This document shows positions 954 to 63,110 of a stretch of DNA of 64,000 nt, piece after piece. The notes beneath the pieces were generated by a model. The model searched no databases. It saw only the letters and a list, made by a program, of their open reading frames with translations, and was not told where the DNA came from. Numbering within the stretch: the first letter of the stretch is position 1; each line of letters opens with the position of its first letter. Position numbers and translations under genes: made by a program. This DNA is from Glaucostegus cemiculus (taxonomy: Eukaryota), in assembly GCA_976551045.1 (NCBI GenBank), contig CDPCPM010000030.1, positions 2,418,001-2,482,000 on the forward strand. Reading direction: 5' to 3'.

Positions 954-1037
954 TCCCAGAGACGTCTATGAGAGAACAGTACAATGGAGCATCAACACAG
1001 GAGGCATCTACAATCCCAGCAGAAAATACGTCTTCAG
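954..1037 (+). pseudogene. Type A pseudo-exon (84 nt)
   Basis: Acceptor CAG>CAT and donor GT>GG (cag|ggacca). Confidence 0.6.
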
Positions 1038-1173
1038 GGACCAAGACATATGTCAATGGGGTTATTCAACCACGATGTGGCCTGGAAGCTCCTGTGAACC
1101 ATGCATTTGTTAGATGTGCATTGCAGCTTGACACGATGGATGGTGTCAGTTCCACCCCTGCTGCTAATTTCAG

Positions 1174-1197
1174 AAGTGCTTGAGACCTCTGAAAATG
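1174..1197 (+). CDS. Candidate 24-nt microexon M (EVLETSEN)
   Basis: tttcag| ... |gtggat; phase 1-1. Confidence 0.35.
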
Positions 1198-1446
1198 GTG
1201 GATGCACTTTCCTGGAATGTGCAAGCATAGACACGAAGATAACAGGGATCCCCAAATTCCGGCACTGTCCTTCCAGATCACAGCTCACAGTCACAGCCAG
1301 GTTCAGCTTCAGAGATCCCGAAGGGAGAGATATTGAACGGTGATGCATGGTGTTGGTTTTCCACAGATGCAAACTTTCCCAAATTCGCAGTCTGATTGTC
1401 CTGTTTTGCGGCTTCCAATATCCATGTCCCTCTCCGTTTGTTTCAG

Positions 1447-1542
1447 TGCCAGAGACTTCCAAAGGGGAACAATCCGGAGGATCATCCAGTGGGGCATCAA
1501 CACAGGAGTCGTATTCAGGCCCAGCAGGGGACACCTCTACAG
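1447..1542 (+). CDS. Exon A 96 nt VPETSKGEQSGGSSSGASTQESYSGPAGDTST
   Basis: tttgtttcag| ... cag|gtacca; phase 1-1, open frame. Confidence 0.75.
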
Positions 1543-1914
1543 GTACCAAGACGTATGTCAATGTGGTCAATCAGAAAAGCTCAGGACTCGAAGCTCTTGC
1601 GAACCATTCAATTGTGAGATGAGCATTTCAGCCGGACATGATTGGTGGTGTGTGTTCAATCCCCTACTGGCAATTTCAGTCGTGACTGAGACCTGTAAAA
1701 AAAGAGAAAGGTTAACTTACACGGAGTGGGCAGCTTTGGTCGGCGGCTGGTGTAATTCAAGATATGGGGTTTTGTCAGTTCATCGATCAGAGGGAATGAA
1801 AACTTGTCTTTGCCCACGCGACATGGAAAGTGGCACGTGACTGTGTTTGGTTTGACCTCCGTCAGGGTTTACAAGGGTCGGATGCACTCCCATGCCTCTG
1901 TTCCATTATTACAG

Positions 1915-2010
1915 TTCTGAAGACTTCCCCGATGGAACAGCCGACTGGATTATCAAATGGAGAGCACACGCAGGAACCGTCCTCTGTCCCCTTGAGTGAG
2001 ACAGCCTCAG
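1915..2010 (+). CDS. Exon B 96 nt VLKTSPMEQPTGLSNGEHTQEPSSVPLSETAS
   Basis: ttattacag| ... cag|gtacga. Confidence 0.75.
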
Positions 2011-3298
2011 GTACGAAGTGTTCAATGTCTGATGGTTCACACAATCTCACTAATGCTGTGATATCGCACCTCCAGCAGACTGATTCAACATCTTGTCGTG
2101 CATTGCAGCAGGGAGTTCAATGACGGTGTTGGTTGTTCATCTCTTCAATCTGTGCCTATATTCATTAGCATCTGAGGTCTCAGCCCTGGACATTCAGTAC
2201 CTTGGAATGAGACTCACTCACGGATGAAGATGAGATGTGTTGACAGTCAGAGCAGCAGATCTGAGACCTGAGGTTAAGTAACTGGGGGATGTTTCATTCA
2301 ACCTTGGGAATAAATGGTATCTTGGTGAGGGAGCGGACGGGAGTCTTCTCTGATACTGACAGTCAAAGCTGACAACCAGCATCATGTTTATCAGTATCAA
2401 TTTGTTCAAAGGCATTGATAGCAGGAAATGTGGGATTTCGGGGATCACTTGGTCAGCCTAGGATGGTAAAATATGAGAAATTTGTATGTTGAGGCTGAGG
2501 GATTGTAGACTGGTCATCCTTTGGGTGAGCGGGTAGCCTTGTGGTTTCAGGCAAAGCTCAAGGGGAGGAAATACACTGGACACTTGAATTGTGCGAAGAT
2601 CAGAGCGGACTTGGAAATAATTGTCTTCAGGACACCTGGGGTATCATGGAGTCTATAAATCGTTGGGGTATCCGAGAGTGCTCTGGCATGTGGACATCAG
2701 AGACTGATGCTCGCATGCAGCAATAAGGAGTCTTTATGCAAAGCTTATGTCGTGGAGCAATGAGGGGGGTCACTAATTGAGGTTGTCTTCGGTGGCCTTT
2801 GAGTCTGGTGGAACTGGATGTTGGAGGGGGTGAGGGAGAATGATGACTTGATGGAGAGGGTGTATCTGGGAGTGTGATGGACAGACTTAGGTCAGAGAGG
2901 AGGACCGATGGAAATGAGAGGCAATAATTCATCTGGAAATTATTGAGGAGTGTGGTACTGTCATTGGGAGAGTATGGAGGGGAGAGACTGCTCTGGAGAA
3001 AGGATTGACATGGACCTGACTGACTAACAAACCCACCAGAGTCTGCAAGCTCTGATATCAGTCGTGTGGATCATTGAAGTGAAAACGAATCCCCAAGTTC
3101 AGACACTGAGCTGAAACAGGCTGTGACGAAAAGGCGTTCTCTGGAAGGAGAGAGCTTCAGAAGGGAGATGTATTGAAAGGAGATGCATGATGTTGGTTTC
3201 TCCGCAGATCCAGCCGCCTCATTACCTTACACCTCTACCTGGCTGATTGCCCTACTTTGCGGCTCCCTGTCTCCCATGTCTTTCTTCCTTTATTCCAG

Positions 3299-3382
3299 TC
3301 CCAGACACATCTAAATTTGTACAATCCAATGGAGCATGGACACAGGAGGTATCTTCTATCTCTGCAGGAAACAAGTCTGCAG
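3299..3382 (+). CDS. Exon A 84 nt VPDTSKFVQSNGAWTQEVSSISAGNKSA
   Basis: tttattccag| ... cag|gtaaca; in-frame 12-nt deletion. Confidence 0.7.
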
Positions 3383-3518
3383 GTAACAAGACATATGTCA
3401 ATGGGGTCATTCAGCAAGGATGTGGCCTGTAATTTCCTGTGAACCATGAAGTTGTTCGATGTGCATTTCAACTTGAGATGATGGATGGAGTCAGTTCCAC
3501 CCCTGCTGCTAATTTCAG

Positions 3519-3542
3519 ATGATCTTGAGAACACTGAAAAGG
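3519..3542 (+). CDS. Candidate 24-nt microexon M (DDLENTEK)
   Basis: tttcag| ... |gtggtt. Confidence 0.35.
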
Positions 3543-4038
3543 GTGGTTGCACTTTCCTGGAATGTGCAACCATTGACGGTGGCTGGCGTAGATCACGATG
3601 TGGAGGTGGGTCAGTGGATCGTGCTGGAGGACTGAGACCTGGTGTTTGTAGTCAAGGGATAGAGAGTGTCCGGTGGGTGTGTTTGAAGTGACTTTCAGGC
3701 AGGAGTTACAAGACTGATTTACAAATTTATGAGCGGTACTGATTGGTGCGAATGCAAGAAACATGTCCTGTTATCTGAAATGAATCTAGAGGACATCATT
3801 TCGGCATGGTTTCAGATAATCTGAAGGGATTTCAGCAAGATGTCTGGGCAGCAGAGGACACTTGGAGTATCCGGGTATAAGGTAGCATGCTGGAGTATAA
3901 GCGCCTTGGAGTACACTAGAGGTTTGGAAGCATGAAGTTAATTCTGCCTCTGAATATAAGAGGGATTTGAATGTCTCTATGACATCAGAGTGCAAGGATT
4001 GTCGGATACACTTCTCTGCCTCTGTTCCGTTATTCCAG

Positions 4039-4134
4039 ACCTGAAAACTTCCCCAATAGAACAGCCGAGTGCAGAATCAACTGGAGAGCCAAACCAGGAA
4101 ACGTCCTCCGTCCCCTTGAGTGAGACAACATCAG
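4039..4134 (+). CDS. Exon B 96 nt DLKTSPIEQPSAESTGEPNQETSSVPLSETTS
   Basis: ttattccag| ... cag|gtacta. Confidence 0.75.
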
Positions 4135-5439
4135 GTACTAAGTCGTGTGTTTCTGAATTTTCATACAATCTCTACGCTGCTGTGATGTAGCACTTAATGC
4201 ACACTAATTCACATTCGTGGCGTGCATTGCCGGTTGGAGGTAAATTACGGTACTGGTTGTTTATCTGTCCACTCTGTGCCGATCTTCAGTTTCATCTGAG
4301 GTCTGCACGCCTGTCAATCAGCACCTTGCTCGGAGCCTCATTCACAGGACTGAATGAGATTTGTTGACAACCGGAGCAGCAGATTTTTGACCTGAGCTGT
4401 GGTAACTCTGGGAATATAAGTGGTCACTTGTGGATGTATAATTGAGATTCAGAAATGAATCGGATATGGGTGAGGGAGCGGACTGGAGACTCCACTGGTG
4501 CTGAGAGCCAGGGTTGTCAATCAGCTGAAAGATTATGAGCTTCACTTTGTTTACAGTCATAGACATCTGGAAATGAGGGTATCGTTGATCATTTGTCGAG
4601 CCTGCGCTGATGAAATATGAGGTGTTACAATGGTGTAGCTGAGGGACAGGAGACTATTCATTTTATGGGTGGGTGGCAGGTACACCTGGTGATTTGAGGC
4701 ACAGAGGGAAGATTTGGAAAACACTGGACATTTGGACCTTGAGAATATTGGATGCTTCGCTGAGGTTGCTGAATTTAGAAGGCGCGGGGAATCAGGGAGA
4801 TTATGATCTGTTGAAGTATGAGACGGTGTTTTATTGGTTTGGGCATAGGAGAATGATTGTGGTTTGAAGCAGTTATGGGTCTTTTTGGAAAGCTTGTGTC
4901 GCGGATAAATGACTGTGGTCACGAACTGAGGTGGCCTTTGTTGCGTTTTGAAGGTAGAAACACAGTGCGTGTTGAAGAGGGTCAAGCCGATTGATGAGTG
5001 GAGGGAATGTGTCTAACTGGGACAGTGATTGACTGAGCTCGGAGATGAGGACAGAAGGAAATGAAAGGGACCGAGAATCGGGGAATGATTGTGGAAGGAG
5101 AGATAGGAAATGTGAGAGGACGGAGAGGAGTGATTGCTGCAGAGAAAGGAGAGACAAGATCCCTGATTGACAGAAAAAACGACAACTTTCAGCTGTGGTA
5201 TCAGAAGTGTTGATCATGTTCAGTCACAGAAGCCGATGTTCAGTCACAAAAGCCGAACTTGGCTGTGAGTGAGAGGAGTAATCTGGAGGGATAGAGCTAC
5301 GGAAGGGAGAGTTATTGAACGGAGACGCATGACGTTTGTTTCTCCACAGTCCCAGCCCCCTCTCCCCCAAACTCCTGTCTGATTTTGATAACCTGCGTTG
5401 TTCCTTCCAATTGTCCATGTCTCTCTTCTTTTATTACAG

Positions 5440-5535
5440 TCCAAGGGACTTCCAAAATGGAAGATTACGGAGGATCAGCGAATGGAGCATCAACACAGGA
5501 GCCGTCTTCCATCCCAGTAGGAGACACGTCGTCAG
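5440..5535 (+). CDS. Exon A 96 nt VQGTSKMEDYGGSANGASTQEPSSIPVGDTSS
   Basis: ttttattacag| ... cag|gtacca. Confidence 0.75.
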
Positions 5536-5901
5536 GTACCAAGACTTATATCAACCTGGTCATTCAGCGAAACTGTGTCCTCGAAGCTCTTGCTAACCAT
5601 TCAATTGTTAGATGTGCAATTCAGCCGGACTTGATTGATAGTGTTCTATCCACTGCTACAAATTCAGAAATGCCTGAGACCTCTAAAAAAGGGAGCTTTC
5701 GCTTCCCAGGAACGGAGAGCCTTGGACGGAGTCCGGTGTAATTTATAATGTTGTGTTTTGTCACTTTACCAATAAGGATGACAGAAATCTGCTGTTGGTC
5801 TTCAAGGCATGGATAGTGGTCAGTGATTGTGTTTGGTGTGACCTTAAGGCAAGGTTTGCAAAGGTCGGATGCACTTCCATGCCTCTGTTCCCTTATTCCA
5901 G

Positions 5902-5997
5902 AACTGAAGACTTCTCCTTTTTACCGGTCGACTGGATCATCAACTGGAGAGACCACGCAGGAACCGACCTATCTCCCATTGAGCGAGACAGTCTCAG
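5902..5997 (+). CDS. Exon B 96 nt ELKTSPFYRSTGSSTGETTQEPTYLPLSETVS
   Basis: cttattccag| ... cag|gtacta. Confidence 0.75.
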
Positions 5998-6150
5998 GTA
6001 CTAAGTCTTGATTGTCTTATATTTCATGCACTCTATCAGAGGCTGTGATCTAGCACATTGCAGACGGATTTTCCTTCGTGGCGTGCATTGCAGCAGGGAG
6101 GTGATTGACGGTGTTGGTTGTTTACCTCTCCCTTCTGTACCCATCGTCAG

Positions 6151-6189
6151 TCGTAACTGAGGTCTCCACGGTTATCAATCATCATCTTG
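6151..6189 (+). CDS. Candidate 39-nt exon D (VVTEVSTVINHHL)
   Basis: Pyrimidine tract + tcag| ... ttg|gtatga; phase 1-1. Confidence 0.4.
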
Positions 6190-7278: not shown

Positions 7279-7374
7279 ACCCTGAGACTTCCAAAAGTGA
7301 ACAAACCAGAAGAACATCCAATGCAACATCCACTCAGGAGCCGTCTTCTCCTGCAGCAGGAAACCAGTCCTCAG
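7279..7374 (+). CDS. Exon A 96 nt DPETSKSEQTRRTSNATSTQEPSSPAAGNQSS
   Basis: ctattccag| ... cag|gtacca. Confidence 0.75.
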
Positions 7375-7510
7375 GTACCAAGATTTATGTCAATTGGGTC
7401 ATTCGGCAAGGACGTGCCCTCGAGGTCCCTGTCAACCATGCATTCATCAGATGTGGATTTCAGCTTGACATTATTGATGGTTTTAGGTCCACCCAAGCTG
7501 CTAATTTCAG

Positions 7511-7534
7511 AAGTGCCTGAGACCTCTGAATATG
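7511..7534 (+). CDS. Candidate 24-nt microexon M (EVPETSEY)
   Basis: tttcag| ... |gtggga. Confidence 0.35.
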
Positions 7535-9409: not shown

Positions 9410-9494
9410 TCCCAGAGACGTCTATGAGAGAACAGTATAAATGGAGCATCAACACAGGAGGCATCTACAATCCCAGTAGAAAATATGTTTTCAG
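9410..9494 (+). pseudogene. Type A pseudo-exon (85 nt, frameshifted)
   Basis: Acceptor CAG>CAT plus a 1-nt insertion (gtataaatgg vs gtacaatgg at the 954 copy). Confidence 0.6.
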
Positions 9495-19113: not shown

Positions 19114-19629
19114 TCCCAGAGACTTCCAAATCTGGTACTGGGATTGTACACGGTGTAATTGAGAAGATTGAGAGGGGATCTGATTTAAACATACTTGATT
19201 GTTAAGGGATTGGATAAGATAGATACGGGAAATATGTTCCAGATGTTGGAGAAGTCCAGAACCAGAGCGGATGATTTAAGAATTAGGGGTTGGACATTTA
19301 GGACAGAGGTGAGGAAACACTTCTTCTCCCAGAGGGTTGTGAGTTTGTCGAACGCACTGCCTCAGAGGGCAGAGGAGGGCAGTTCTCTGGGCATTGTCAA
19401 GCAGGAGATAGATAGCATTTCTTATAGATAGGGGTATCAAGGGATATGGGGACAAATCAGGAAAGGGATATTGAGTGTTGAAAACTCTGCCATGATCTCA
19501 AAATGGCGGAAGACTCGAAGGGCCGAATGGTCTCCTTCTGCTACTATTTTCTCTTGCCTATTGAATAGAACGTACAATGCAACATCAATACTGGAGACGT
19601 ATTCAACCCCAGAGGAAACCAGTCCTCAT
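19114..19629 (+). pseudogene. Type A exon disrupted by a LINE insertion (possible residual 21-nt exon 19114-19134)
   Basis: Acceptor and first 17 nt (tcccagagacttccaaa) intact, then LINE sequence; the exon resumes at 19567 (agaacgtacaatgc). Confidence 0.7.
19131..19566 (+). mobile_element. 5'-truncated CR1-like LINE, 3' end of ORF2 plus 3' UTR (436 bp)
   Basis: Encodes the CR1 ORF2 C-terminus (RRLRGDL-like start; KGLDKID...FRTEVRKHFFSQRVV...ALP) followed by the 3' UTR motif gaagggccgaatggtct. Confidence 0.9.
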
Positions 19630-21660: not shown

Positions 21661-21744
21661 TCCCAGAGACTTCTATGAGAGAACAGTTCAATGGAGCATC
21701 AACACAGGAGGCATCTGCAATCCCAGCAGAAAACACGTCTTCAG
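21661..21744 (+). pseudogene. Type A exon with weakened splice sites (84 nt; 78 nt from a backup acceptor at 21667)
   Basis: Acceptor CAG>CAT, donor GT>GC (cag|gcacca); frame still open. Confidence 0.5.
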
Positions 21745-30977: not shown

Positions 30978-31494
30978 TCCCAGAGACTTCCAAATCTGGT
31001 ACTGGGATTGTTCACGGTGTAATTGAGAAGATTGAGAGGGGATCTGATTTAAACATACTTGATTGTTAAGGGATTGGACAAGATAGATACGGGAAATATG
31101 TTCCAGATGTTGGGGAAGTCCAGAACCAGAGCCCATGATTTAAGAATAAGGGGTTGGCCATTTAGGACAGAGGTGAGGAATAACTTCTTTTCCCAGAGGG
31201 TTGTGAGTTTGTGGAACGCACTGCCTCAGAGGGCAGAGGAGTCCAGTTCTCTGGGCATTTTCAAGCAGGAGATAGATAGGATTTCTCATAGATAGGGGAA
31301 TCAAGGGATATGGGGACAAATCAGGAAAGGGATATTGAGTGTTGAAAAATCTGCCACGATCACAAAATGGCGGAAGACTCGAAGGGCCGAATGGTCTACT
31401 TCTGCTACTATTTTCTCTTGCCTATTGAATAGAACGTACAATGCGACATCAATACTGGAGACGTCTTCAACCCCAGCAGGAACCCAGTCCTCAT
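30978..31494 (+). pseudogene. Type A exon disrupted by the duplicated LINE insertion (possible residual 21-nt exon 30978-30998)
   Basis: Same structure as the 19114 copy; exon resumes at 31431. Confidence 0.7.
30995..31430 (+). mobile_element. 5'-truncated CR1-like LINE 3' end (436 bp), duplicate of 19131-19566
   Basis: KGLDKID...GWPFRTEVRNNFFSQRVVSLWNALP; same junctions as the first copy. Confidence 0.9.
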
Positions 31495-32241: not shown

Positions 32242-33534
32242 GTAACATGTCTTGAATGTCTGAAGTTTCATACCATCTCTCTGATTCTGTGATATATCAC
32301 CTCTTGCAGACTGATTCAACATCGTGTCGTGCATTGCAGCAGGGAGGTGAATGACGGTGTTGGTTGTTTATCCTTCACTCTGTGCCTATCTTCATTAGCA
32401 TCTTAGCTCTCAACCGTGGACCTTCAGACTCTTGGAATGAGACTCATTCACGTGTAAATAAATGATCTGTTGGAAGTCAGAGCAGCAGATCTGAGTCCTG
32501 AGGTGTGGTAACTCTAGGATGTTTCTTTCAAACTCAGGAATAAATGGCATCTGGGTGAGGGAGCGGACGGGAGGCTTCGCTGATACTGACAGTCAAGGTT
32601 GACAACCAAAATCAGATTTATCAATATCAATTTGTTCAATGGCATGGATATCAGGAAATGCAGGATTTGCGGGATCACTTGCTCAGCCTTGGATTATAGA
32701 ATGTGAGGAATTTGAATGTTAAGGCTGAGCGATAGGAGACTGACCATCCTGTGGGACAGCTGGGAACCTTGAGGATTCATGCACAGATGGAGGGGTGGAA
32801 ATAAACTGAACACTTGAACTGTGCCAAGATATTAATGTACGTGGAATTTATTGTCTTCAGGAGACCTGGGGTATCATGGAGTCTATGAATCTTTGGGGTA
32901 TCCGAAGGTCTTCTGGCATGTGGACATCAGAGACTGATGCGCACATGCAGCAATGTGGAGTCTTTATGCAAAGCTTGTGTCGTGGAGCAATGACGGGTGT
33001 CACTAATTGAGGTTGTCTTCGGTGGCCTTTGAGTCTGGTGGCACTGAGTTTTGGGGAGGGTGAGGGAGAATGATGACTTGAGGGAGAGGGTGTAACTTGG
33101 AGTGGGATGGAAAGACTTAGGTCAGAGAGGAGGACTGATGGAGATTAGAGGCAACAATTCCTCAGGAAAAGATTGAGGAAGGTGGGACCGTTACTGTGAC
33201 AGGATGGAGGGGAGAGATTGCTGTGCAGAAAGGAGTGACACGATCCCTGATTGAGCATAAACCCACCTGAGTCGGCAAGCTGTCGTATCAGCAGTGTAGA
33301 TTATTGAAGTGAAAACGAATACCCAAGTACATGCACTGAAGCTGAAACTAACGGTTACAGAAGGGAGTGATCTGGAGGGAGAAAGATTGTGAAGGGAGCG
33401 GTATTGTACAGAGATGCATGACGTTTGCTTCGCCAAATCTACAGTCGCCTCTTTCCCCCACATCTTTCCCAGTCTGATTTCCTGCTTTGCTGCTTCCTGT
33501 CTCCCATGTCTTTCTTTCTTTATTCCATTCCCAG

Positions 33535-33612
33535 GGACTTCTATGAGAGAACAGTACAATGGAGCATCAACACGGGCGGCTTCTACTGTCCCAGCAGAAA
33601 ACACGTCTTCAG
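33535..33612 (+). CDS. Type A exon using a backup acceptor (78 nt) GTSMREQYNGASTRAASTVPAENTSS
   Basis: Primary CAG>CAT, but tttattccattcccag| lies 6 nt downstream in frame; donor cag|gtacca intact. Confidence 0.45.
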
Positions 33613-36999: not shown

Positions 37000-37206
37000 C
37001 AGTGGAGGCCAATTCTCTGGACACTTTCAAGAAGGAGCAAGATAGGATTCTTGTGGATGAGGGAATCAAGGGATATGGGGACAAAGCAGGAATAAGATAT
37101 CGATAGTTGATGATCAGCCATGATCTCAAAATGGCGGTGCAGAATCGAAGGGCCAAATGGTCTACCTCTGCGCCTATTTTCTATTGTCTATTATTGTCTA
37201 TTGTCT
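37000..37206 (+). mobile_element. Short 3' fragment of the same CR1-like LINE family, with (CTATTGT)n tail
   Basis: Homologous to ~19370-19566; microsatellite tail ctattgtctattattgtctattgtct; target-site duplication ATAAATG at 36993-36999 and 37207-37213. Confidence 0.9.
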
Positions 37207-37735: not shown

Positions 37736-38512
37736 ATCCTCTTATTCTTCCATCCCTGTAGATCGCCTTGGAGTTTTCCTTAATGCTTCCCACCAAGGCC
37801 TTCTCATATCCCCTTCTGGCTCTCCTAATCTCTTTCTTATGTTCCTTCATATTAGCCTTGTATTCTTCCAGATCACTAACATTACCTAGCTCCCTGTACC
37901 TTTTGTGCGCTTTTCTTTTCTCCTTAACTAGCTTTATGATAGCCTCCGTGCACCACGGTTCCCGCATCCTCTCACGACTTCCCTGTCTCAATGGAACATG
38001 TCTGTGAAGAGCTTCACGCAAATACCCCCTGAATATCTGCCACATATCTTCTGTACTTTTCCCAGAGAACATCTGCTCCCAATTTAGTCTTCCAATTTCT
38101 TACCTGAGGCCCTCATAATTCCCTCTACTCCAATTATACACTTTTCTAATGTGTCTGTTCCTATCTCTCTCCATTCCCAACATAAAGGAGATAGAATTAT
38201 GGTCACTATCACCAAAATGTTCTCCCACCGAGAGATCTGACACCTGACCAGGTTCATTACCCAGTACCAACTCCAACACAGCCTCTCTTCTCGTAGGACT
38301 GTCCACATACTGTGTCAAGAACCCTTCTTGAGCACACCTAACAAACTCCAGCCCATCTAAACCCCTCACCGTCTGGAGACGCCAGTCGACATTTGGGAAA
38401 TTAAAATACCCCATCACCACAACTCTATTATTCTCACATTTTTTCTAGGATCTTCCTCCCTATCTGCTCCCCAATAACACTGTCACTATCGGGCGGCCTA
38501 TAAAAAAACCCT
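37736..38512 (-). mobile_element. Internal CR1-like LINE ORF2 fragment (AP-endonuclease C-terminal half plus linker), no RT and no 3' tail
   Basis: Minus-strand motifs YRPP, MGYFNFPNVDW (GDFN), PTRREAVLELVLGNE, GDSDHNSI, then EPW...KKEIRRARRGYE. Confidence 0.9.
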
Positions 38513-39984: not shown

Positions 39985-40072
39985 TCCCAGAGACATCCAA
40001 AAAGTAACAATCCGGAGGTTCACCCAATGCAGCATCAGCACAGGAGCCGTCTTCTATTCTAGAAGGAAACTC
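39985..40072 (+). pseudogene. Type A pseudo-exon, donor deleted
   Basis: Acceptor ttattacag intact; about 25 nt spanning tcag|gtaccaagac are missing (ggaaactcccatggggtcatt). Confidence 0.65.
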
Positions 40073-40193
40073 CCATGGGGTCATTCAGCAAGGTTGTGTC
40101 CTCGAAGCTCCTGTCAACCATACATTTGTTAGATGTGTCATTTCATCTTGACATGATGGATGGTATCATTTCCACCCCTGAATACAATTTCAG

Positions 40194-40673: not shown

Positions 40674-40769
40674 TCCTGAAGCCTTCCCCAATGAAACAGC
40701 CGAGTAGATCATCAACTGGAGAGCCCACACAAGAACCGTTCTCTGTCCACTTGAGTAAAGCACCTTCAG
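40674..40769 (+). pseudogene. Type B exon with dead acceptor
   Basis: tttattcccg in place of tttattccag; frame open, donor intact. Confidence 0.55.
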
Positions 40770-42758: not shown

Positions 42759-42854
42759 AACTGAAAACTTCCCCAATGGAACAGCCGAGTGGGTCATCAT
42801 CCGAAGAGCCCTCACAGGAACCGTCCTCCGTCCCCTTGAGTGAGAAAGCCTCAG
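42759..42854 (+). pseudogene. Type B exon with dead donor
   Basis: cag|gaacga (GT>GA); acceptor intact, frame open. Confidence 0.55.
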
Positions 42855-47685: not shown

Positions 47686-50479
47686 CACAAGATCACAAGA
47701 CAAGGGAGCAGAAGTACGCCATTCGGACTATCGAGTCTGCTCCACATGGAAAGATTTTTTTTTTTTCCGGGAAGAACAAATAACTTATTCTATCACCAAG
47801 ACACGGATGTATCTCCGTATCTCTTGATACCTTGAATAATTGGTTATATATCTGGCTTCTCGTAAAACACCACCATCCGGCCTCCACTGCTTTCTGTGGC
47901 AAGGAATTCCATAACTTCAGAACCTTGTTTTAAGCCATTTCTCGTCATCCCTGTTTTAGAACAGTGCCCTCTAATTCTAGGATTGTGCTCTCTGGTCCTG
48001 GAATCACCCACCAAGGGAAACAGCCAAATCTATTCTGTTCAGTCCTTTCAACGTTTTAAATGTTCCTAAGAGGTTCCCCCCTCACTCTTCTGTACTCCAG
48101 CGAGTACAGTTCAAGTGCAGATGGACGCTCATCATATGTCAGCCTTTAAACCCAGGAATCATCCTCCTGAATCTCTTCTGAATCCTTTCCAACATCAACA
48201 CATCATTCCGAAGATATAGGGCGAAATAACTGTACACTGTATTCCAAATGAGGCCTCATCAGTGCCCCGTATATTACTCATCAACACTTCCTTGCTTTTA
48301 TACATTATAACCCTCGAAATGAATGCAAACGTAGCATTCGCTTTCCTTACCGCCGGTCCGACCTGCTGGTTAACTTTTAGGTTATCCGATACGAGTACAC
48401 CCAAGTCCCTTTGTACTTCTGTACTTTGATTTTTTTCTCGCTCTAGATAATAATCTGCCCGATTATTTCTGTTTCCAAAATGTACAACTGAACATTTCTC
48501 AACATTGTATCTCATCTGCCATTTCCTCGCCCAATCTCCTGGACTAGCTGAGGCTCTCTGAATCTTTCCTGTTTCTTCAATACTCGCCACTACTCCACCT
48601 ATCTAAGTATCATCCGCAAACTTGGACAGAAAACCATTGACTCCATCATCTAAGTAGTTAATGTACAGGGTAACAAGTAGCATTCCCAAAACCAACCCCT
48701 GCCTAACACCCAAGAAAGCGGCAGCCAACCAGAACAGAATGCTTTTCTTCCCATCCTCTGCTTTCTGCCAACCAACCAACGCTTCACTCGTTCTATTATC
48801 ATACCAGTTATTCCGTGACCACTCATCTTATTAATCAGTCCCTTGTGTGGCACCTTGTCGAATGCCTTCTGAAAGTCCAAATGCACGACATCTACCGCCT
48901 CTCCCTTATCCACCAGACCTGAGATTTCTTCAAAAATCTCCAATTAGATGGTCAGGCAGAATCTTCCCTTCACGAAACCATGTTGGCTTGGACCTATCTT
49001 GCCTTGCACCTCTAGGTATTCCATCACCTGGTCCTTGAGGATCGATTCAAATAACATTCCCACCACAGACGTAAGACTGATAGGTCTGTAATTTACTTTA
49101 TGCTGTCTCCCACCTTTCCTATACAGCAAAACTACATTTGCGACACTCGAGTACTCCGGAACCACGCTGGAGTCTCTCGATTCCTGAATATTATCACCAA
49201 TGCCTCCGCTATCTCTAAAGACACTTCCTTCAGTACCGGGGATGTACCTCATCCCGTCGTGGAGACTTATCAGTCTTTAGCACATTCAGCTTCCCCAACA
49301 CATTCTGTCTCGTAATCTTAACTGAACTCAGTTCCATCCCTTGAGGCCTTTGACACACGGGATATTGCTGATGTCCTCCACTTGCATCGGTCTTCACGGT
49401 CTCTTTATCAACTCTTTATCAAGCATCTCTTAATCAACTATTATAATCTCTCCCGCAACATTGTCTACTGGTCCAAGATAAACCCTCGTCTCTCTTGTAC
49501 TCCTATAATATATTAAAAAAAAAATATCCTTCCGAATAGTTACTGTCAACTTATTTTCATTATTCCTCTTTTCTTTCCTCATGAACTTCTTAGTTTCTTT
49601 CTGTTGGTTTTTAAAAGTTTCCCAGCCTTCTGTTTTCCCACTACTTTTTGCTTCCTTGTGTGCCCTCCCTTTTATTCTTATTTTAGCCTTCACCTCTCTC
49701 CTTATCCCCATTTTTGTCTTATTTCCATTCAAAACATTTTTTTTTCTTGGAATATACCTATCCTGCATTTTCCTTGCTTCTTGTGGAAATTCCATCCATT
49801 TCTGTTCTGCCGTCCTTCCAGATAGCTTACATTTGAGCCAGCTACTCTCCCATCCTACTGTGATTCCCCTTGTTCCACTGAAATATCAACGCTCCAGTTA
49901 TCAGCTTCTCTTTCTCAAAATTAAAACTGAACTCAATCATATTGTGATAACTGGTTCCGAATGCTTCCTTTACCTTCAGTTCCCTAATCACCTCCGGTTC
50001 ATTACACAGCCCTCAATCCAAAACAGCCGATACCCTGGTGGGCTCATCAACCAGTTGTTCCAGAAACCTTCCCGTAGACCTTCTGCAAAATCACTCTCCC
50101 CAGAACCGCTGCCTCGCTGGATTTTCCAGTGCACCTCCATGTTAACATCTCCCATAATTATCATAACATTGTCAATCTGATATGCTTTTTCTACCTCTAA
50201 CTGCAACTTATGATCTACTTCCTGGCTATTATTAGGGGGCCTATATATAACTGCTACTACTGCCCTCTTGCTCTTGCAGTTCCTTAACTCCACCCATATG
50301 GATTCTACCTCTTCTGACCCAATGCCCTTCCTTTCTATTGATTTTATATAATTACTAAACATCATGGCCACACCACCCCCTCTGCCAACCCGACTATCCT
50401 TCCTGTACACTGTGTACCCCTGGACACTGAGTTCCCAATCACATTCGTCAGAAAGCCACGACTCAGTGATTGCCCAGAG
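47686..50479 (-). mobile_element. Degenerate 5'-truncated CR1-like LINE (ORF2 endonuclease + reverse transcriptase + 3' UTR), ~2.8 kb
   Basis: Minus-strand motifs ITESW, YRKDSRVGRGGGVA, IYRPP, MGDVN (EN); NYRPISLTS, QHGF, LDFQKAFDKV, KFADD at ~48610-48623 (RT); RDLGV. Many frameshifts; (GATCTTGT)n tail at ~47686-47700. Confidence 0.95.
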
Positions 50480-54275: not shown

Positions 54276-55354
54276 GTACGAGCCTCATTCATGGGTCTGT
54301 ATGAAATTGGTTGGCAGCCCGGACAGCAGAACTGAGACCTGAGTTTAGGTAACTGGGGAAATTGAAGTGGTGATGTTTCAGTTAACTTCATGAACAAATG
54401 TGTTCTGTGTGAGATAGTTGACGGGCGTCTCCACTAATGCTGACAGCCAAGGTTGACAACCAGCGGCAAGGTTATGAATATAAATTCGTTCACTGGCATG
54501 GATATCACGGCTTTGGGGATCACTGGCTAATCCTTGGATGATTAAATGTGAGGGGTTTGCAAGATGTCCCTGAGGGAAAGGAGCCGAGTCGTCATACGGG
54601 TGTGCGGGGATGCCTGGTTGTCTGATACATAAATGTAGGGGTGGAAATACACTGATCACTTGAACAGTGGGTATATTATAGGATACGTGGAGGTTATTGA
54701 CTTTAGGAGGCCTGGGTTAGAATGAAGTGTATGAATTTTTGGGGTATGAGAGGGTGTTCTTGGATTCGGATATCAGAGAATGATGTGTGCATGAAGCAAT
54801 GTTGAGCCTTTGTAGAAAGCTTGTGTCTTGGAGCTTTGACTGGTGTCTGTAACTGAGGTACACATTGGTGGTCTTTGAGTGTGGTGACACTGAATGTTGT
54901 TCACGGTGAGGTAGAGTGATGACGAGGGTAAGTGTGTAACTGGTATTGTGGTGGACAGATTTAGGTCAGATAAGAGGTCTGATGGTAATTGAAGGGAATG
55001 ATGATTGAGGAAGGTGGGATGACTGCTGTGACAGGATGGGAGGAAAGATTGGTGAAGGAGAGACACTGTCCCTGATTGACAACTTACCATCCAGAGTCTG
55101 AAAGGTCTGGTATCAGCGGTGTGGATCATTGATTAGAACACGAATCCGCAAGGTCAGGCACTGAGGTTGAACCTGGCTGTGACTAAGAGGAGTGATATTT
55201 TGATCTCCGGAAGAGAGAGATATTGAACGGAGATACATGATGCTGGTTTCTCCACAGGTCCAGCGCCCTCTTCCCCAAATACCTTTCCCAGTCTGATTGT
55301 CCTGCTTTGCGGCTTCCAAACTCCCATGTCTCTCTTCCTTTATTCCATTCCCAG

Positions 55355-55444
55355 AGACATCCAAAGTTGAACAATCTAGTGGATCGTCCAATGGAGCATC
55401 AATACAGGGCCCATCTTCTATCCCAGCAGGAAACACGTCTTCAG
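55355..55444 (+). CDS. Type A exon using a backup acceptor (90 nt) ETSKVEQSSGSSNGASIQGPSSIPAGNTSS
   Basis: Primary CAG>CAT; in-frame tcccag| 6 nt downstream; donor cag|gtacca. Confidence 0.5.
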
Positions 55445-55475
55445 GTACCAAGACTTATATCAAAGGGGTCATTTA

Positions 55476-55749
55476 TATGGGCTACACGATAGCTTAGCGG
55501 TTAGCGCGACGCTGTTACAGCGCCAGCGATCGGGGTTCGATTCCCGTCGCTGTCTGTAAGGAGTTTGTACATTCTCCCGTGTCTGTGTGGGTTTCCTCCG
55601 GGTACCCCCGTTTCCTCCCACATTCTGATAGACCTACGGGTAGGTTAGTTTGGGGATTTAAAATGGGTGGCGTGGAATGGGAGGGCCGAAAGGGCCTGTT
55701 ACCACGCTGTAAATAAAATATTAATAAAATGTTAAAAGTAAAAAAGTTA
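55476..55749 (+). mobile_element. tRNA-derived V-SINE (resembles the elasmobranch HE1 type)
   Basis: Pol III A box TAGCTTAGCGG (55490-55500) and B box GGTTCGATTCC (55534-55544); V-domain ggagtttgtacattctcccgtgtctgtgtgggtttcctccggg..tttcctccca; LINE-like gggccgaaagggcctg; A-rich tail; TSD ATTTA at 55471-55475 and 55750-55754. Confidence 0.9.
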
Positions 55750-55859: not shown

Positions 55860-55883
55860 AAGTGCCTGAGGCGTCTGAAAAGG
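55860..55883 (+). CDS. Candidate 24-nt microexon M (EVPEASEK)
   Basis: tttcag| ... |gtggat. Confidence 0.35.
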
Positions 55884-56367: not shown

Positions 56368-56463
56368 ACCTGAAGACTTCTCCAATGGAGCAACCGAGTG
56401 GATCATCAACTGGAGAGCCCACGCAGGAACCGTCCTCTGTTCACTTGACTGAGAGACCCTCAG
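56368..56463 (+). CDS. Exon B 96 nt DLKTSPMEQPSGSSTGEPTQEPSSVHLTERPS
   Basis: tttattacag| ... cag|gtacta. Confidence 0.75.
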
Positions 56464-57431
56464 GTACTAAGTCTCCTCGGTGGACATTCAGCACCTTGGT
56501 ATGATCCTCATTCATGGGTGGAGATGAGATTTGTTGGCATCCAGAGTAGCAGAACTGAGATCTGAGGTTTGGTAACTGGGGGACCTTGCATAGTCACTGT
56601 GGATGTTTTCAGTCAACATCAGTAATTAATGGTATCTGGTTGAGGGAGAGGACAGGACGCTTCGCCGATGCGGACAGCCGAGAGTGACAACCAGCGGCAA
56701 GGTTATGAGTATCATTTTTTTTCACTGGCGTGGATATCAGGACATGTGATCTTTCGACGTTCAGTGGCTGAGCCTGGAATTATTGAATGTAAGGAGTTTG
56801 GATGTTGTGGCTGAGGGATAGGAAACTGGTCATTGTTTGGATGCGCGGGAAGCCTGTTGGTTTGCGGCACTGATGGTGTTGCGGAAATAAACTGGACACT
56901 TTATCTGTGGGAATATTGGAGGTTACGTGGAGGTTAGTGACTTTCGGAGGCCTGGGGTATCATGGCTTGATGACTTGAGGGAAAGGGTGTAACTGGAACT
57001 GTGACGGACAACTTTGTTCAGAGAGGTGGACTGATGGGGATGAGAGGGAATATGTACTTAGGAAATGATTTAGGGACGTAGAATGGGAACTGTGCCAGAT
57101 TGGAGGAGAATTTTGATGAATGGAAAGGAGAGACACGGTCCCTGCTTGACAACAAACATACCAGAGTCTGCAAGCACTGATATCAGCAGTGTGGACCCTT
57201 GAAGGGATCACGAATCCCCAACTTAAGGTACTAAAGCTGAACCTGGCTGTGATTGAGAGGAGTGATGTGGAGGGACAGAGCTTCGGAAGGAAGAGATATT
57301 GAACTGAGAAGCATGATGCTGATTTCCCCTCAGATCCCACCTCCTCTTGTGCAAACACTTTTCCTAGTCTGATTGTCCTGCCTTGCCGTCTTACAAACTC
57401 CCATGTCTCTCTTCCTTTATTCCATTCCCAG

Positions 57432-57521
57432 ACACTTCCAACATAAATCAATCAGGAGCATCATCCAATGGAGCATCAAAACAGGATCCGGCTTCTATCC
57501 CAGCTGGAAATACGTCCTCAG
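57432..57521 (+). CDS. Type A exon using a backup acceptor (90 nt) DTSNINQSGASSNGASKQDPASIPAGNTSS
   Basis: Primary CAG>CAT; in-frame tcccag| 6 nt downstream; donor cag|gtatca. Confidence 0.5.
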
Positions 57522-58072
57522 GTATCAAGACTTATTTCAATGGAGTCATTCAGCATGGATGTAGCCTCGAAGCTCCTGTCAACCATGCATTTGTTAGATA
57601 TGCAGTTCAGCTTGACATGATCAATGGTGTTAGTTCCACCTCTGCGGCCAATTTCGAAAGTGCCCGAGACCTCTGAAAAACGTGGGTGCACTTTCTCGGA
57701 ATGGGCAACCATGGACGGAGGCTGGAGTAGTTCAAGAAGTGGAGGGGGGGCAGTGGATCGAGTAGGAGGACTGTGACCTTGTGTTTGTAGTAAAGGGATA
57801 GAATGTGGCCCCTGCTTGTGTTTCTCGTGACTTTCAGGCAGGATTTGGAAGAACTAATTCATAAATTTATGAGCTGTACTGATTGGTTTGACTGCAGGAA
57901 ACGTGTCTGGGTATCAGGGAGAATGATGAAGTTTTGAAGCCTTGGAGTACCCGGAGGTTAATAAGAATGAGGTCCATCTGGCTCTGAAAGTAAGATGGCC
58001 CATTGATATCCCAATGACATCAGGGTGCAAGGAGGGTCGCATGCACTCCCATCCTCTGTTCCTTTTTTCCAG

Positions 58073-58168
58073 ATCTAAAGACCTCTCTAATGGAACAGCC
58101 GGGTGGTTCTTCAACTGGAGAGAAAACGCAGGAACCGTTTTCCGTCCGCTTGAGTGTGACAGCCTCAG
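58073..58168 (+). CDS. Exon B 96 nt with GC donor DLKTSLMEQPGGSSTGEKTQEPFSVRLSVTAS
   Basis: ttttttccag| ... cag|gcacta (non-canonical, may be inactive). Confidence 0.45.
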
Positions 58169-58323
58169 GCACTAAGTCTTGTGTGTCTGATATTTCATAC
58201 AATCTCTCCGATGCTGTGATATAGCACTTATTGGAGACTGATTCACCTTCGCTGCGTGCATTGCTGCAGGGAGGTGAATGACGGTTTTGAATGTTTCGCT
58301 CTCCTCTCTGTGCCAATCTTCAG

Positions 58324-58362
58324 TAGCATCTGAAGTATCCAAACCTGTCAATCAATACCTTG
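58324..58362 (+). CDS. Candidate 39-nt exon D (VASEVSKPVNQYL)
   Basis: tcttcag| ... ttg|gtatgg. Confidence 0.4.
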
Positions 58363-59493
58363 GTATGGGTCTCATTCATGGGACTGAATGAGATTGGTTG
58401 ACAACCAGAATTTAGACCTGAGTTTTGGTAACTATGAGAATATAAATGGTCACTTGGGGATGTTTAATTCAACTTCTGGAATGAATTGGATCAGAGTGAG
58501 GGAGTGGACGGGTGTCTCTACTGGTGCTGAGAGCCAGAGTTGACAACCAGCTGAAAGCTTATGAACATCAATTTATTCAAAGGTATGGATATCAGGAAAT
58601 GTGGGCATGAGTGTTCACTTTCCGAGTCTGCGCTGATTGAATATGAGGTGTGGAAATGGGGTGGCTAAGGGATAGGGGGTCTGGTCATTTCGTGGGAGGG
58701 GCCAGGTAATCCTGGTGATTTGAGGCACAGAGGGAGGGTTGCAAAAACACTGGACATTACGACTTTGCGAATAATAGAGGGAACGTTGAAGATGTTGAAT
58801 TTGGAAGGTGTTGTGTAGTAGGGTGTTTAGAAAGTGTTGGGTAATGTGAGGGTGTTGTTTAATTTGAGGTTCAGAATATTATCGAGGTTTGAAGCAATGC
58901 TGGGTTTTTCTGGGAAGCTTGTGTCTTGGAGCAATGACTGGGGTCAGGAACAGTGTGGCTTTGGTGGGTTTTGATGGTTGATGCACAGTGCGTGTTGGAG
59001 AGGTGAAGCAGAATGTTGAGTGGCTGGAAAGGGTGTAACTGGGAGAGTGACTGACTGAATTCAGAGAGGAGGACAGACAGAAATGAAAGGCACAGAGACG
59101 GGAGTTTGTCCTCGAGGCGCGGAAAGTGGCCGGTGATTCTGCTGGGAGTGACTTTCAGGCAGGATTTACAAGACAGTGTTATAAAATTATGAGCTGCATG
59201 ATTGGTTTGACTGCAGGAAACATGTCATGTTATAAGAATTGAATACAGAGGACATCAGTTCGGCAAGTGTTCATATATATAGGGGTGATTTCAGCAAGTT
59301 GTCTGCACACCAGATGACTGAGTGTCCGGTATCAGGGTGCATGTTGGAGTGTCCATGTGTTAGAGTGCACTGGACTCTAGGGACAATGGAGAGCACACTG
59401 GCACTCAACATAAGAGGACCATTGGAGGTCCCTGCGACATCAGAGTGCAAGGAGAGTTAGATGCACACCCATGCCTCTGCTCCTTTATTGCAG

Positions 59494-59589
59494 ATCTGAA
59501 GACATCCCCAATGGAACAACCGAGTGGATCATCAACTGGAGAGGCAAAGCAGGAAACGTCCTCTGTCCCCTTGAGTGAGATAGCCTCAG
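59494..59589 (+). CDS. Exon B 96 nt DLKTSPMEQPSGSSTGEAKQETSSVPLSEIAS
   Basis: tttattgcag| ... cag|gtacta. Confidence 0.75.
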
Positions 59590-59742
59590 GTACTATGTCC
59601 TGAGTGTCTACTGTCAGATACAATCTCTGATGCGGTGATATAGCACTTATTGCAGACTGATTCACTTGCGGGGCCTGCTGTGCAGCAGGAAGGCGAATGA
59701 CGGTGCTGGTTGTTTATCAATCCACTCTGTGTCTATATTCAG

Positions 59743-59781
59743 TATCATCTCAGGTCTCCATGTTGGACAACCAGTACCTTG
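59743..59781 (+). CDS. Candidate 39-nt exon D (VSSQVSMLDNQYL)
   Basis: tattcag| ... ttg|gtatta. Confidence 0.35.
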
Positions 59782-60840
59782 GTATTAGCCTCATTCAAAG
59801 GGCAGGATGTGATTGATTGACAGCCAGAGCAGCAGAGCTGAGACATGAGGATTAGTAACTGGGGAAATTTGAGTGTGAATGTTTCATTCAACTTCAGGAA
59901 AGAATGGGATCTGGGTGACGAAGCGACGGCAATCTTCACTGATGCTGAGCGCAAAGGTTGACAACCAGCTGCAAGGTTATGAACACCAATTTATTCACTG
60001 GCATGGATATCAGCAAATGTTGCATCAGGGATTACTGGCTGATCCTGGGCTGATTGAATAGGAAGAGTTGCAATGGGGTGGCCGAGGGAGAGGAGACTGG
60101 TCATTGTTTGGGGATGACCAGGTGCATCTGGTGATCTTAGGCACGGAGGGAGCGGTGGGAATACACTGGCCATTTGGGCTCAGAGAATATTCGAGTGCAA
60201 GCGAAGGTTAATGAATTTGGGAGGCGTGGGCATGAAGTGTTGGCGTGTTGTTGGATTTGGGCATGTTCGTGGTTTGAAGCAATGTTTGGTCTTTCTGGAA
60301 AGCTTGCGTCGTGGATCAATGACTGGGGTCAGGGAGTGAGGATGTCTTTGGTGGGCTTTGAAGGTGGAAGCACTGTGGGTGTTGGAGAGGGTGAAACCGA
60401 ATGAAGCGTGGAGAGGAAGAGTGTAACCGGGAGAGTGGTTGACTGTCTGAGGTCAGAGAGAAGGACAGACGGAAAGCAGAGGGATTATGACTCAGGAATT
60501 GCAAGTGGAAAGAGACATGGACACAGTGACAGGATTGAGGGGAGATGTTGCTAGAGAGAAAGGAGAGACATTATCCCAAATTGATAACATACCCACCAGA
60601 GTCAGCAAGCTGTGGTATCAGCAGCGTGGATCATAGAATGGAACACAGATCCCCAAGTTCCGTCACCAAAGCTGAACCTGGCTGTAACTGAGGGGTACGA
60701 TCTTAGGGACAGAGCTTCGGATGGGATAGTTATTGAACGGAGTTGCATGGTGGTTTCCCAGCAGATCCAGCCCCCTCCCCCCAAGCATCTTTCCCAGTTT
60801 GATTGTCCTTCTCTCCCATCTCTGTCTTCATTTATTCCAG

Positions 60841-60936
60841 ATCCATCGACATCCAAAAGGGAACACTTCGGAGGAGCATCCAGTAGAGCACCAATACAGG
60901 AGCCGTCTTCTCTCCTATCATCAAACACGTCCTCAG
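60841..60936 (+). CDS. Exon A 96 nt DPSTSKREHFGGASSRAPIQEPSSLLSSNTSS
   Basis: tttattccag| ... cag|gtacaa. Confidence 0.72.
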
Positions 60937-61588
60937 GTACAAAAACTGATGTTAATGGGTCATTCAGCAAGTATGTGGCCTCGAAGCGCCTATGAACCAT
61001 TCATTTCTGAGATGTGCATTTCAGTTTGGAATGATTAGTGGTGTTATTTCACACCTGCTGCCACTTTCGGAAGTGCCTGAGACTTCTGAAAAGGGTGGAT
61101 GCACTTTCCTGGAATAGGCAAACATGGACGGAGGCTGCTGTAGATCACGATTTGGAGGCGGGCCAGTTGACCGAGCCAGTGGACTTAGAACTGGTGTTTG
61201 TGGCCAACGGGTAGAAAGATGTTGCGGGTATGTCAGCAGTGACATTCAGGCAGGATGTACAAAGCTAATTTATATCTTTGAGCGGTATTGATTCTCTTAA
61301 CTGCAGGAAACATGTCCTGATATCAGAAGTGAACACAATGGACATTAATTGGGCAAGGGGTCAGATATAGTGAAGGGATTCCAGCATGACGTCTGCACAC
61401 CAGAGGACACTTGGAGTGTCTGGATATCAGGGAGCATGTTGGAGTGTTAGTGCTTTGAATTACACTGTAGGTTAGGAAAATCGTTGTCATCTCTGGCTCT
61501 GAGCATTAGAGGACGCTCTGACACCCCTGTAACATCAGAGCGCAAGGAGCGTCGGATGAACTCCCATGCCTTGCTTTCTTTTTTACAG

Positions 61589-61684
61589 ACTGGAATAATT
61601 CCCCAATGGAGCAGCCGAGTGGAGCATCAACTGGAGATCCAACGCTGGAAAGGACCTCTGTCCCTTTGAGTGAGACAGCCTCAG
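61589..61684 (+). CDS. Exon B 96 nt DWNNSPMEQPSGASTGDPTLERTSVPLSETAS
   Basis: tttttttacag| ... cag|gtacaa. Confidence 0.72.
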
Positions 61685-62246
61685 GTACAAAGTCTTGAGT
61701 GCCTGATATTTCATTACAATCTCTCTGATGCTGTGAAATACAATTATTGCAGACTGATTCACTTTCCTGTCGCACATTGCCGCAGAGAGGTGAGGCCGGT
61801 GTTGATTGTTTTTCTTTCCCCTCTGTGACTATCTTCAGCAGCATCTAACGCCTGACAATCAGCATCTTAGTATGAGCCTCGTACATGAGACAGGATGAGA
61901 TTTGTTGACATCCAGAGCAACAGATTTTAGATCTGAGCATTGTTAACAGTGGGAATATAATTGGTCATTTGGGGATGTTTCATTCTACGAGAGGAAAGCA
62001 TTGGATCTCGGTGATAGATCTGACTGGAATCACCACTGATTCTAAGAGTCAGGGTTGACATCCAGCGGAAAGGTCATGAACATCAATTTGTTCACTGGCA
62101 TGGATATCCGGAAATGTGGGCATCAAGGTTCACTTGTCGAGCCTGCGCTGATTGAATAGGAGTAGTTGCAATGGGGTGCCAGATGGATAGGAGACTGGTC
62201 GTTGTGTGGGTGGGGGTAAATATACATTGTCATATGAGGCACAGAT

Positions 62247-62323
62247 ATGAGCCTTCGTGCAAAGCTACCCATTCCGGGAAAGAGAAACAGCCCTTTGCAG
62301 AGGTCTCAGCTGCATCTGGGATT
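62247..62323 (-). repeat. Inverted ~77-bp insertion copied from the microexon-M region of the array
   Basis: Reverse complement aatcccagatgcagctgagacctctgcaaagggctgtttctctttcccggaatgggtagctttgcacgaaggctc aligns to the M region (e.g. ~29375-29450). Confidence 0.8.
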
Positions 62324-63014
62324 ACATTGGACATTTGGACTTTGAGAATATTAGAGGGTACTTGGGGGATATTGAATTTGGAAGGCGTGAGATATCCGGG
62401 AGTGTATTAAGTGTTGGGTTCTGAAGGTGTTGTTTAATTGGAGGTTCAGTATATTATCGAGGTTTAAAGCAATGTTGTTTTTTTCTGGGAAGCTGGTGTC
62501 GTGGAGCAATGACTGGGATCAGGAACTGAGGTGGCTTTGGTTGGTTTCAACGCGGAAGCTCAGTGGGTATGGCAGAAGTTGAAGGAGAAGGATGAGTAGC
62601 GGGGAAGTGTGTAAATTGGAGAGTGATTGACTGACAGAGGCCAGAGAGGAGGACAGAGAGAAATGAGAGGGCGAGAGACTTATGGAATGATTGAGGAAGG
62701 AGAGATGGGAACTGTGACAGGACGGAGAAAGGAGAGACATAATATCTTATTGACCACAAACCTACGCTCAGGAATCAGCAGCGTGGATCATTGAAGGGAA
62801 CACTGATCCCATGTTCAGTCATTTTCGCCGGACCTGAATGTGACTGAGAGGAGTAATCAGGAGGGACAGATTTTCAGAAGGGAGAGTTATTGAACGGAGT
62901 CGCATGATGTTGTTTTCTCCATAGACTCAGCCTCCACTCCCCCAAACTCCAGTCCTAGTCAGATGACCTGCTTTGCTGCTTCCAATTGTCGATTTCTCTC
63001 TTCATTTATTCTAG

Positions 63015-63110
63015 TGCCAGATATCTCCAGAGGGGAAGCATCCGGAGGATCATCGAAGGAGGCATCAATACAGGAAGAGTCTTCAGTCCCAGCAGGAGAC
63101 ACGTCCTCAG
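63015..63110 (+). CDS. Exon A 96 nt VPDISRGEASGGSSKEASIQEESSVPAGDTSS
   Basis: tttattctag| ... cag|gtacca. Confidence 0.75.

Follow-up and report, generated by a model that had tools for sequence, protein, structure and literature searches.

Uromodulin is known as a bacteria-trapping protein of urine. Together with GP2 it carries the D10C domain (PF23283), which has ten Cys in five disulfides; the disulfide list that we used for Cys pairing comes from a published description, in which GP2 N65 is the FimH-binding site (PMC8930769). In zebrafish, genes with tandem D10C domains have undergone a lineage-specific expansion. One of these omcins, omc5, has EGF IV, a ZP domain and a predicted glycosylphosphatidylinositol (GPI) anchor, and an antibacterial role was shown for it; the report terms omcins teleost-specific, and sharks and other cartilaginous fish go unmentioned in its text (PMC11415648). 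Multivalent display was reported in another study (10.1101/2025.05.09.653020). Among mucins, the Pro/Thr/Ser-rich (PTS) domain of chicken Muc13 has one exon per repeat (at least 12 repeats of 20 amino acids, with SEA and transmembrane segments), and splicing was proposed there as a length control (PMC1552070). The PTS region of chicken MUC2 is also spread over many exons (PMC3549977). Here we describe a 64,000-nucleotide (nt) stretch of Glaucostegus cemiculus DNA (contig CDPCPM010000030.1, below C30, positions 2418001-2482000; "the window"), which resembles a satellite and lies wholly within one gene. On the evidence of the sequence, we consider it probable that its 96-nt units are frame-protected, exon-like cassettes in a D10C-headed gene for a secreted, likely O-glycosylated mucin-like protein of up to about 3,580 residues.

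The initial annotation of the window had proposed about 59 cassette segments, 48 of them intact and all in phase 1-1, and our census agreed with it exactly. The search profile for repeat exons, made from six window copies, gave 61 matches, all on the plus strand, which resolve to 59 segments, two of them split by an insertion. There were 48 intact open units, namely 44 canonical units of 96 nt, one 96-nt unit with a CAG/GC donor (starting at 58073) and three canonical units of 84 nt (starting at 3299, 11155 and 26137). They comprise 1,524 codons, all in phase 1-1, with no stop and no Cys in frame; both this absence and the coding of at least about 1,500 amino acids within the window had been claimed before. 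In each repeat unit exon B comes first and exon A second (the names are swapped relative to the initial annotation, whose A is our B). A branch-point-like motif had been noted before one exon type, and CTRAY indeed precedes 47 of the 60 copies of one type and 2 of the 61 of the other.

The repeats continue beyond the window (positions below 1 or above 64000 are C30 positions minus 2418000). In 464 kb around the window there were 128 plus-strand repeat matches, from -60068 to about 91150, plus one inverted orphan. The whole array contains 125 copies over 151 kb (C30:2357961-2509135), and 100 of the 124 fully aligned rows are intact. We assessed selection on 117 copies (59 A, 58 B) joined by a minimum spanning tree of 115 edges, with neutral rates taken from 160-nt flanks; three insertion-split copies, one partial copy, the three oldest 5' copies and the last copy were excluded. 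Two stops were observed where 64.6 were expected, and no Cys where 18.9 were expected; in the window alone there were 0 stops against 33.8 expected. Indels amounted to 0.92 per kb in exons and 6.58 per kb in introns, and the frameshifting ones to 5 in 10,915 exon sites and 186 in 31,169 intron sites. The comparison of stop and indel rates between exon segments and flanks, on which the initial annotation had staked part of its proposal, gave a strong depletion in the exons. In a separate count of distinct variant codons, 2 of the 32 possible stop variants were present, none of the 11 Cys variants and 76 of the 147 synonymous ones. We did not observe stop depletion in the other five reading frames; antisense or other-frame coding was therefore ruled out. 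Selection acts against stops, frameshifts and Cys in this frame only, and other amino-acid change is free (omega, the ratio of nonsynonymous to synonymous rates, was 1.11 for the 117 copies). The absence of Cys variants would fit an oxidising secretory route.

The intact exons of the window, all on the plus strand, are B1447-1542, A1915-2010, B3299-3382, A4039-4134, B5440-5535, A5902-5997, B7279-7374, A8029-8124, B9904-9999, A10371-10466, B11155-11238, A11895-11990, B13296-13391, A13758-13853, B15135-15230, A15876-15971, B17284-17379, A17752-17847, A20283-20378, B22154-22249, A22623-22718, B24018-24113, A24764-24859, B26137-26220, A26873-26968, B29149-29244, A29618-29713, A32146-32241, B34022-34117, A34490-34585, B35884-35979, A36634-36729, A38581-38676, B42021-42116, B44129-44224, A44691-44786, B46193-46288, A46940-47035, B51115-51210, A51857-51952, B53247-53342, A53996-54091, A56368-56463, A58073-58168 (GC donor), A59494-59589, B60841-60936, A61589-61684 and B63015-63110. 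The exon edges 1542/1915, 2010/3299 and 4134/5440, which had been put forward as junctions, lie where they were placed. Eleven window copies have a lost splice site, again on the plus strand. Dead 84-nt copies stand at 954..1037 (acceptor CAT, donor GG) and 21661..21744 (acceptor CAT, donor GC), and a third 84-nt copy at 33529..33612 has acceptor CAT and a frame-keeping AG 6 nt downstream. The copies at 55349..55444 and 57426..57521 also have acceptor CAT, with an AG in frame at +6; 40674..40769 has acceptor CCG and 42759..42854 donor GA. The dead frameshifted copy of 85 nt at 9410..9494 (acceptor CAT) had been taken for the sole broken one, which does not hold. The dead copy at 39985..40084 has a stop in frame and its donor deleted, and the likewise dead ones at 19114..19629 and 30978..31494 are interrupted by a retroposon 3' fragment of approximately 430 nt (19135-19566; the same insertion at 30999-31430, duplicated along with its block). 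All four have lost a splice site, as had been claimed for the broken copy. We also noted retroelement insertions in introns of the array (window positions 47686-50479, 37000-37206, 37737-38512 and 55474-55749), which we take to be of CR1/SINE type.

The gene model around the array has 111 exons over 196 kb, with one frame open from the ATG through the tail. A likely 5' untranslated region (UTR) exon, conserved in paralogs, ends at C30:2314010, and the ATG/signal-peptide exon, conserved in four paralogs, is at C30:2316395-2316443 (starting at -101605). It is followed by D10C #2 (C30:2328892-2329024, 2329328-2329404 and 2331033-2331212; -89108 to -86788), D10C #3 (C30:2341558-2341699, 2342125-2342201 and 2343019-2343180; -76442 to -74820) and linker exons (C30:2356345-2356437 and 2357125-2357205). 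After the last repeat unit (91040-91135) come a tail exon of 116 nt (C30:2509875-2509990; 91875-91990), a terminal exon with the stop (C30:2511938-2512027; 93938-94027) and two AATAAA signals (C30:2512450 and 2512463), all on the plus strand. The promoter was not located; paralogs do not share a TATA-like word seen at C30:2313786. The giant gene also has two linker exons of an older type whose donors are gone and are retained in some paralogs (L023:6720-6800, L014:9640-9730).

The predicted protein has about 3,580 residues (3,552 codons plus 29), with an isoelectric point of about 4.4 and 44 sequons. Its stalk region of 3,182 codons contains 35.6% Ser and Thr, 45.6% Ser, Thr and Pro (STP), 12% Asp and Glu, and one Cys. 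Past the signal peptide the predicted protein lacks hydrophobic segments (beyond residue 30, hydropathy over 19 residues peaks at 0.99), and we found no ZP, transmembrane or GPI segment in the gene model, whose frame ends about 68 residues past the last repeat. VWD and cystine-knot exons were found neither in the gene model nor, by Pfam, in eight relatives. Of the exons expected outside the window, the signal-peptide and folded-domain ones were thus present (signal exon, D10C exons and Cys tail), and a transmembrane exon was not. Selection confined to one frame and a complete in-frame gene around the array bear out the earlier proposal of a mucin- or proteoglycan-like gene with one exon per repeat of a Ser/Thr/Pro/Gly/Glu-rich region. 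The product is most likely a secreted mucin-like glycoprotein with a D10C head, a disordered stalk of about 3,200 residues and a small Cys tail; its anatomy and the selection on it can be read from the sequence, and secretion, splicing and, from composition, glycosylation are predicted. It has the mark of a mucin, a long, repetitive, Pro/Thr/Ser-rich and almost Cys-free region on a protein predicted to be secreted. As in gel-forming mucins of the MUC2 type, Cys-rich ends surround a large Cys-free PTS core, but VWD, CysD and cystine-knot domains are missing and STP reaches only 46%. Unlike membrane mucins (Muc13, CD44-type stalks), the giant protein has no transmembrane segment, and in place of the Muc13 repeats it would have about 100 exons of 32 codons and a D10C head.

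The initial annotation left the gene unnamed; by its sequence it is a member of a D10C-domain, GP2/uromodulin-related family without ZP. D10C exon profiles of the family matched uromodulin (E 6.8e-11) and GP2 (1.4e-5) in PDB, with no other PDB match at E<=1. Single D10C exons of the giant gene scored 15-15.5 bits, under the Pfam cut-off of 27, which whole relatives exceed. The predicted model of the relative P0106 (a partial domain; mean predicted local distance difference test score 63) matched the GP2 decoy module (Foldseek E 3.5e-7; Z 11.3, root-mean-square deviation 1.8, 95 aligned), so that the D10C fold is supported, as a model, for this relative rather than for the giant gene's own domains. 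In alignments D10C #2 keeps C1-C8, C4-C10 and C5-C7 (six Cys) plus one extra Cys and is without C2-C9 and C3-C6, and D10C #3 lacks one of these six Cys; neither domain has the full ten Cys and five disulfides. The family further differs from GP2 and uromodulin in having no ZP, EGF or GPI, several D10C domains in tandem and a long Ser/Thr/Pro stalk, and from omc5 in having the repeat stalk and a different tail. Since it has no ZP and no GPI, we place it outside the filament proteins GP2, uromodulin and omcins. By analogy it could plausibly work like them, and its ancestral arrangement may have been to display D10C decoy domains on a repeat stalk rather than on a ZP filament.

The tail domain is basic and hydrophilic and has three Cys, which may link chains. 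In P0106 it was predicted helical, with generic helical matches only (Z 5.6 or less). Pfam gave nothing above cut-off for tail or repeats, and the ESM Atlas no usable match for the tail (one MUC20 row at 0.76, below chance level). At E<=10 the genome gave 82 matches to the 38-residue tail exon; many of them look like near-identical duplicates, and the gene number is therefore below 82. A second subfamily (P0018, P0048, P0010, P0020) has a different tail of about 50 residues without the three Cys.

The D10C exon had at least 150 matches in this genome. Paralogs consist of a signal exon, a UTR exon, three D10C domains of three exons each and, after these, a few repeat exons (3 to 8 repeat-exon matches in five of the six loci first examined). 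Larger arrays have 18 matches (C184:800803-817950) and 32 matches (C110:2267120-2355500); the latter has a D10C exon inside it. Family copies occur as near-identical sets on contigs C34, C140, C260, C463, C306 and others, either recent segmental duplications or retained haplotypes. A 48-nt intronic minisatellite precedes exon b of D10C #3, with some 35-40 copies in one paralog (C416:361900-363700); it is also present at L013:3780-3940.

The relatives that we looked up proved to be RefSeq models of sharks and rays (Hemitrygon, Hypanus, Mobula, Rhinoraja, Leucoraja, Chiloscyllium, Carcharodon and Mustelus). Of the best 150 matches in a profile search of public proteins, 19 carry the repeat or the tail, for example P0169 (Hemitrygon), XP_072894999.1, XP_062892797.1 ("mucin-5AC-like"), XP_055492300.1 and XP_041038350.1. 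Their names are inconsistent (uncharacterised, GP2-like, OIT3-like, uromodulin-like, mucin-5AC-like). D10C domains, repeats and tail occur in the same spliced order in public elasmobranch models (P0169 and P0170 with a signal peptide, P0083 partial), and in eight of eight relatives D8C_UMOD alone was above the Pfam cut-off, with no ZP. The largest number of recognisable repeats in a relative was 7, among the best 150 profile matches, and the longest Cys-free STP-rich run in 194 proteins was about 340 residues, versus approximately 3,180 in the giant gene. Word-based protein searches with a D10C exon and a window repeat exon gave no match, which is weak evidence and does not mean that the gene lacks annotation.

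Exact-word periods of 7,856, 8,456, about 11,865 and about 12,250 indicate block duplication within the array. Nearest siblings inside duplicated blocks are mostly 92-98% alike, older copies 70-83%. The pair of B and A exons with its introns (about 2 kb) was probably amplified via unequal crossing-over of blocks that measure about 5 to 12 kb. Gain, loss and skipping of repeat exons keep the frame, since all of them are in phase 1-1, and any subset could possibly be spliced in frame, for which the RefSeq isoforms of relatives give indirect support. The inverted orphan unit is at C30:2303457-2305024 (minus strand; L009:5457-7024), about 11 kb upstream of the signal exon; it is 92.7% like the copy at -37738, and its exon looks still open.

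Several observations weigh against a functional giant gene, and some of them also speak for a recently dead gene or null allele, in which the array was selected during growth and the locus is now silent or truncated. The head of the giant copy is eroding. Of D10C #1 there is an inverted remnant (about C30:2323484-2326701, minus strand), made up of exons a and b, with exon c lost; since the domain is in phase 1-1, its loss keeps the frame. In four of four paralogs, D10C #2 has an N-glycan sequon in the D10C groove, two residues past C1 and at the position of GP2 N65 (UMOD N275). The sequon also occurs in 15 of 29 domains of 16 public relatives (9 of the 16), and it is absent from both D10C domains of the giant gene, which means a loss in D10C #2. 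D10C #3 forms a long branch; a conserved Trp, one Cys and the WYRF motif are missing from it. The ratios of nonsynonymous to synonymous differences (pN/pS), from small counts, did not separate the giant gene from paralogs in D10C #3 (about 0.64-0.75 and 0.47-0.77) and were somewhat higher in D10C #2 (0.7-1.3 and 0.4-0.8). A stop interrupts D10C #3 in one of the four paralogs, which shows that members of the family do get lost. In the array itself 25 of 125 copies are not intact, and three frame-breaking copies retain AG/GT: -47029 (stop), -36979 (110 nt, with a normal donor) and 79715 (stop). These three copies are our main doubt; the first two, upstream of the window, would truncate the protein unless skipped. 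Further, edges less than 3% apart are uninformative, with too few changes (0 stops against 0.5 expected), and P-values treat tree edges as independent although copies convert and duplicate. For this reason they are rough, although the gap between observed and expected counts is nonetheless large.

Against a dead gene, stop depletion persists on young edges (0 against 3.4 at less than 6%, p = 0.033; 0 against 8.8 at 6-15%), and no damage or break of frame was seen in the UTR exon, signal exon, two remaining D10C domains, tail and polyadenylation signals. Among the three broken copies, two have donors with a pyrimidine at +3; the copy at -36979 carries three separate indels, as expected of a long-skipped exon, and a long C run that could be an assembly slip. 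Where the donor is normal, 1 of 96 copies has a broken frame; where the sites are dead, GC or +3-pyrimidine, 6 of 22 do. Thus 6 of the 7 broken frames fall in copies with dead or weak splice sites (Fisher P=1.4e-4). We regard a dead gene as unlikely. For the secreted mucin-like protein, loss of the decoy sequon makes a bulk mucin function more likely than FimH-type capture: with its head relaxed, the giant copy might act mostly as bulk mucin, and its stalk might be a component of mucus or a long spacer that carries glycans.

The stalk could instead belong to a proteoglycan of matrix, egg jelly or uterine fluid, as its glycosaminoglycan-bearing core, and not to a mucosal mucin with O-GalNAc glycans. 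Ser-Gly with acidic neighbours is a xylosylation signal, and 51 of the 100 intact exons together contain 63 Ser-Gly sites, of which 50 directly follow an acidic residue and 38 read SGG/SGS. Ser (23.8%) is also far above Thr (11.7%) in the repeat stalk, and the isoelectric point is low. However, Ser-Gly columns are no better kept than neighbouring columns (omega ~1) and about half of the exons have no site, which leaves this reading a small chance.

That the locus would be a variable-cassette gene, with a few of about 100 exons per transcript, many short isoforms and no single giant chain, seems improbable to us. All exons are symmetric, and donors of the array depart from the textbook consensus (GTACCA in 50 of 124, GTACTA in 21 of 124). 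RefSeq isoforms, which usually rest on RNA reads, also differ by single exons in relatives: of 13 isoform pairs, three differ by one 28-34-residue repeat unit and two by a D10C exon, the rest at ends or in an unresolved manner. Yet the units show no diversification to distinct specificities, no Cys and low complexity, and nearly all splice-competent copies are stop-free, so that each appears to be translated often enough for selection. A non-coding satellite, open by chance or as a by-product of homogenisation, would agree with an exon substitution rate equal to the intron rate (0.129 and 0.139 per site) and omega near 1, but it is effectively refuted by the frame-specific absence of stops, Cys and frameshifts, by the conservation of AG and GT (0.035 and 0.066) and by the in-frame fit of the array between signal peptide and conserved tail.

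Other elements near the locus include G-protein-coupled receptor-like open reading frames (ORFs) in the flanks (L026:5669-6340; L027:6564-7484, minus strand; L032:5859-6362, plus strand), presumably of the type expanded in cartilaginous fish. A cluster of simple receptor genes of this kind, the LINE content of the flanks and the relatives of the giant gene all indicate elasmobranch DNA. A provirus-like element (L029:2342-8593) has gag-, pol- and env-like ORFs broken across several frames, and a LINE-1-type element (L002:8136-L003:3301) retains extended parts of ORF1 and ORF2.

Mucin domains with an exon for each repeat are already known, and automated models of short family members are already public. 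In the mostly open-access literature we did not find a ZP-less D10C head with an exon-repeat stalk and helical tail, its elasmobranch expansion or a 100-exon member. Tentatively, these loci may represent an undescribed, massively expanded elasmobranch mucosal family, in which uromodulin-type decoy domains are fused to exon-modular mucin stalks and a helical Cys tail replaces the ZP filament. This member, with about 100 cassette exons and shedding its decoy function, could then be a giant mucin of independent origin caught evolving, its length set by splicing.

In summary, a satellite-looking stretch becomes a gene of approximately 196 kb and 111 exons, tied to a family labelled inconsistently in public annotation. 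The array is an unusually clean natural data set, in which a disordered stalk must keep its frame, Cys-freedom and splice sites while residue identity is dispensable. Its 100 exons can largely be told apart, which opens the old idea that splicing controls mucin length to direct tests. If the reading is true, elasmobranchs would possess a counterpart of the teleost omcins that is built without ZP, as a candidate family for mucosal defence.

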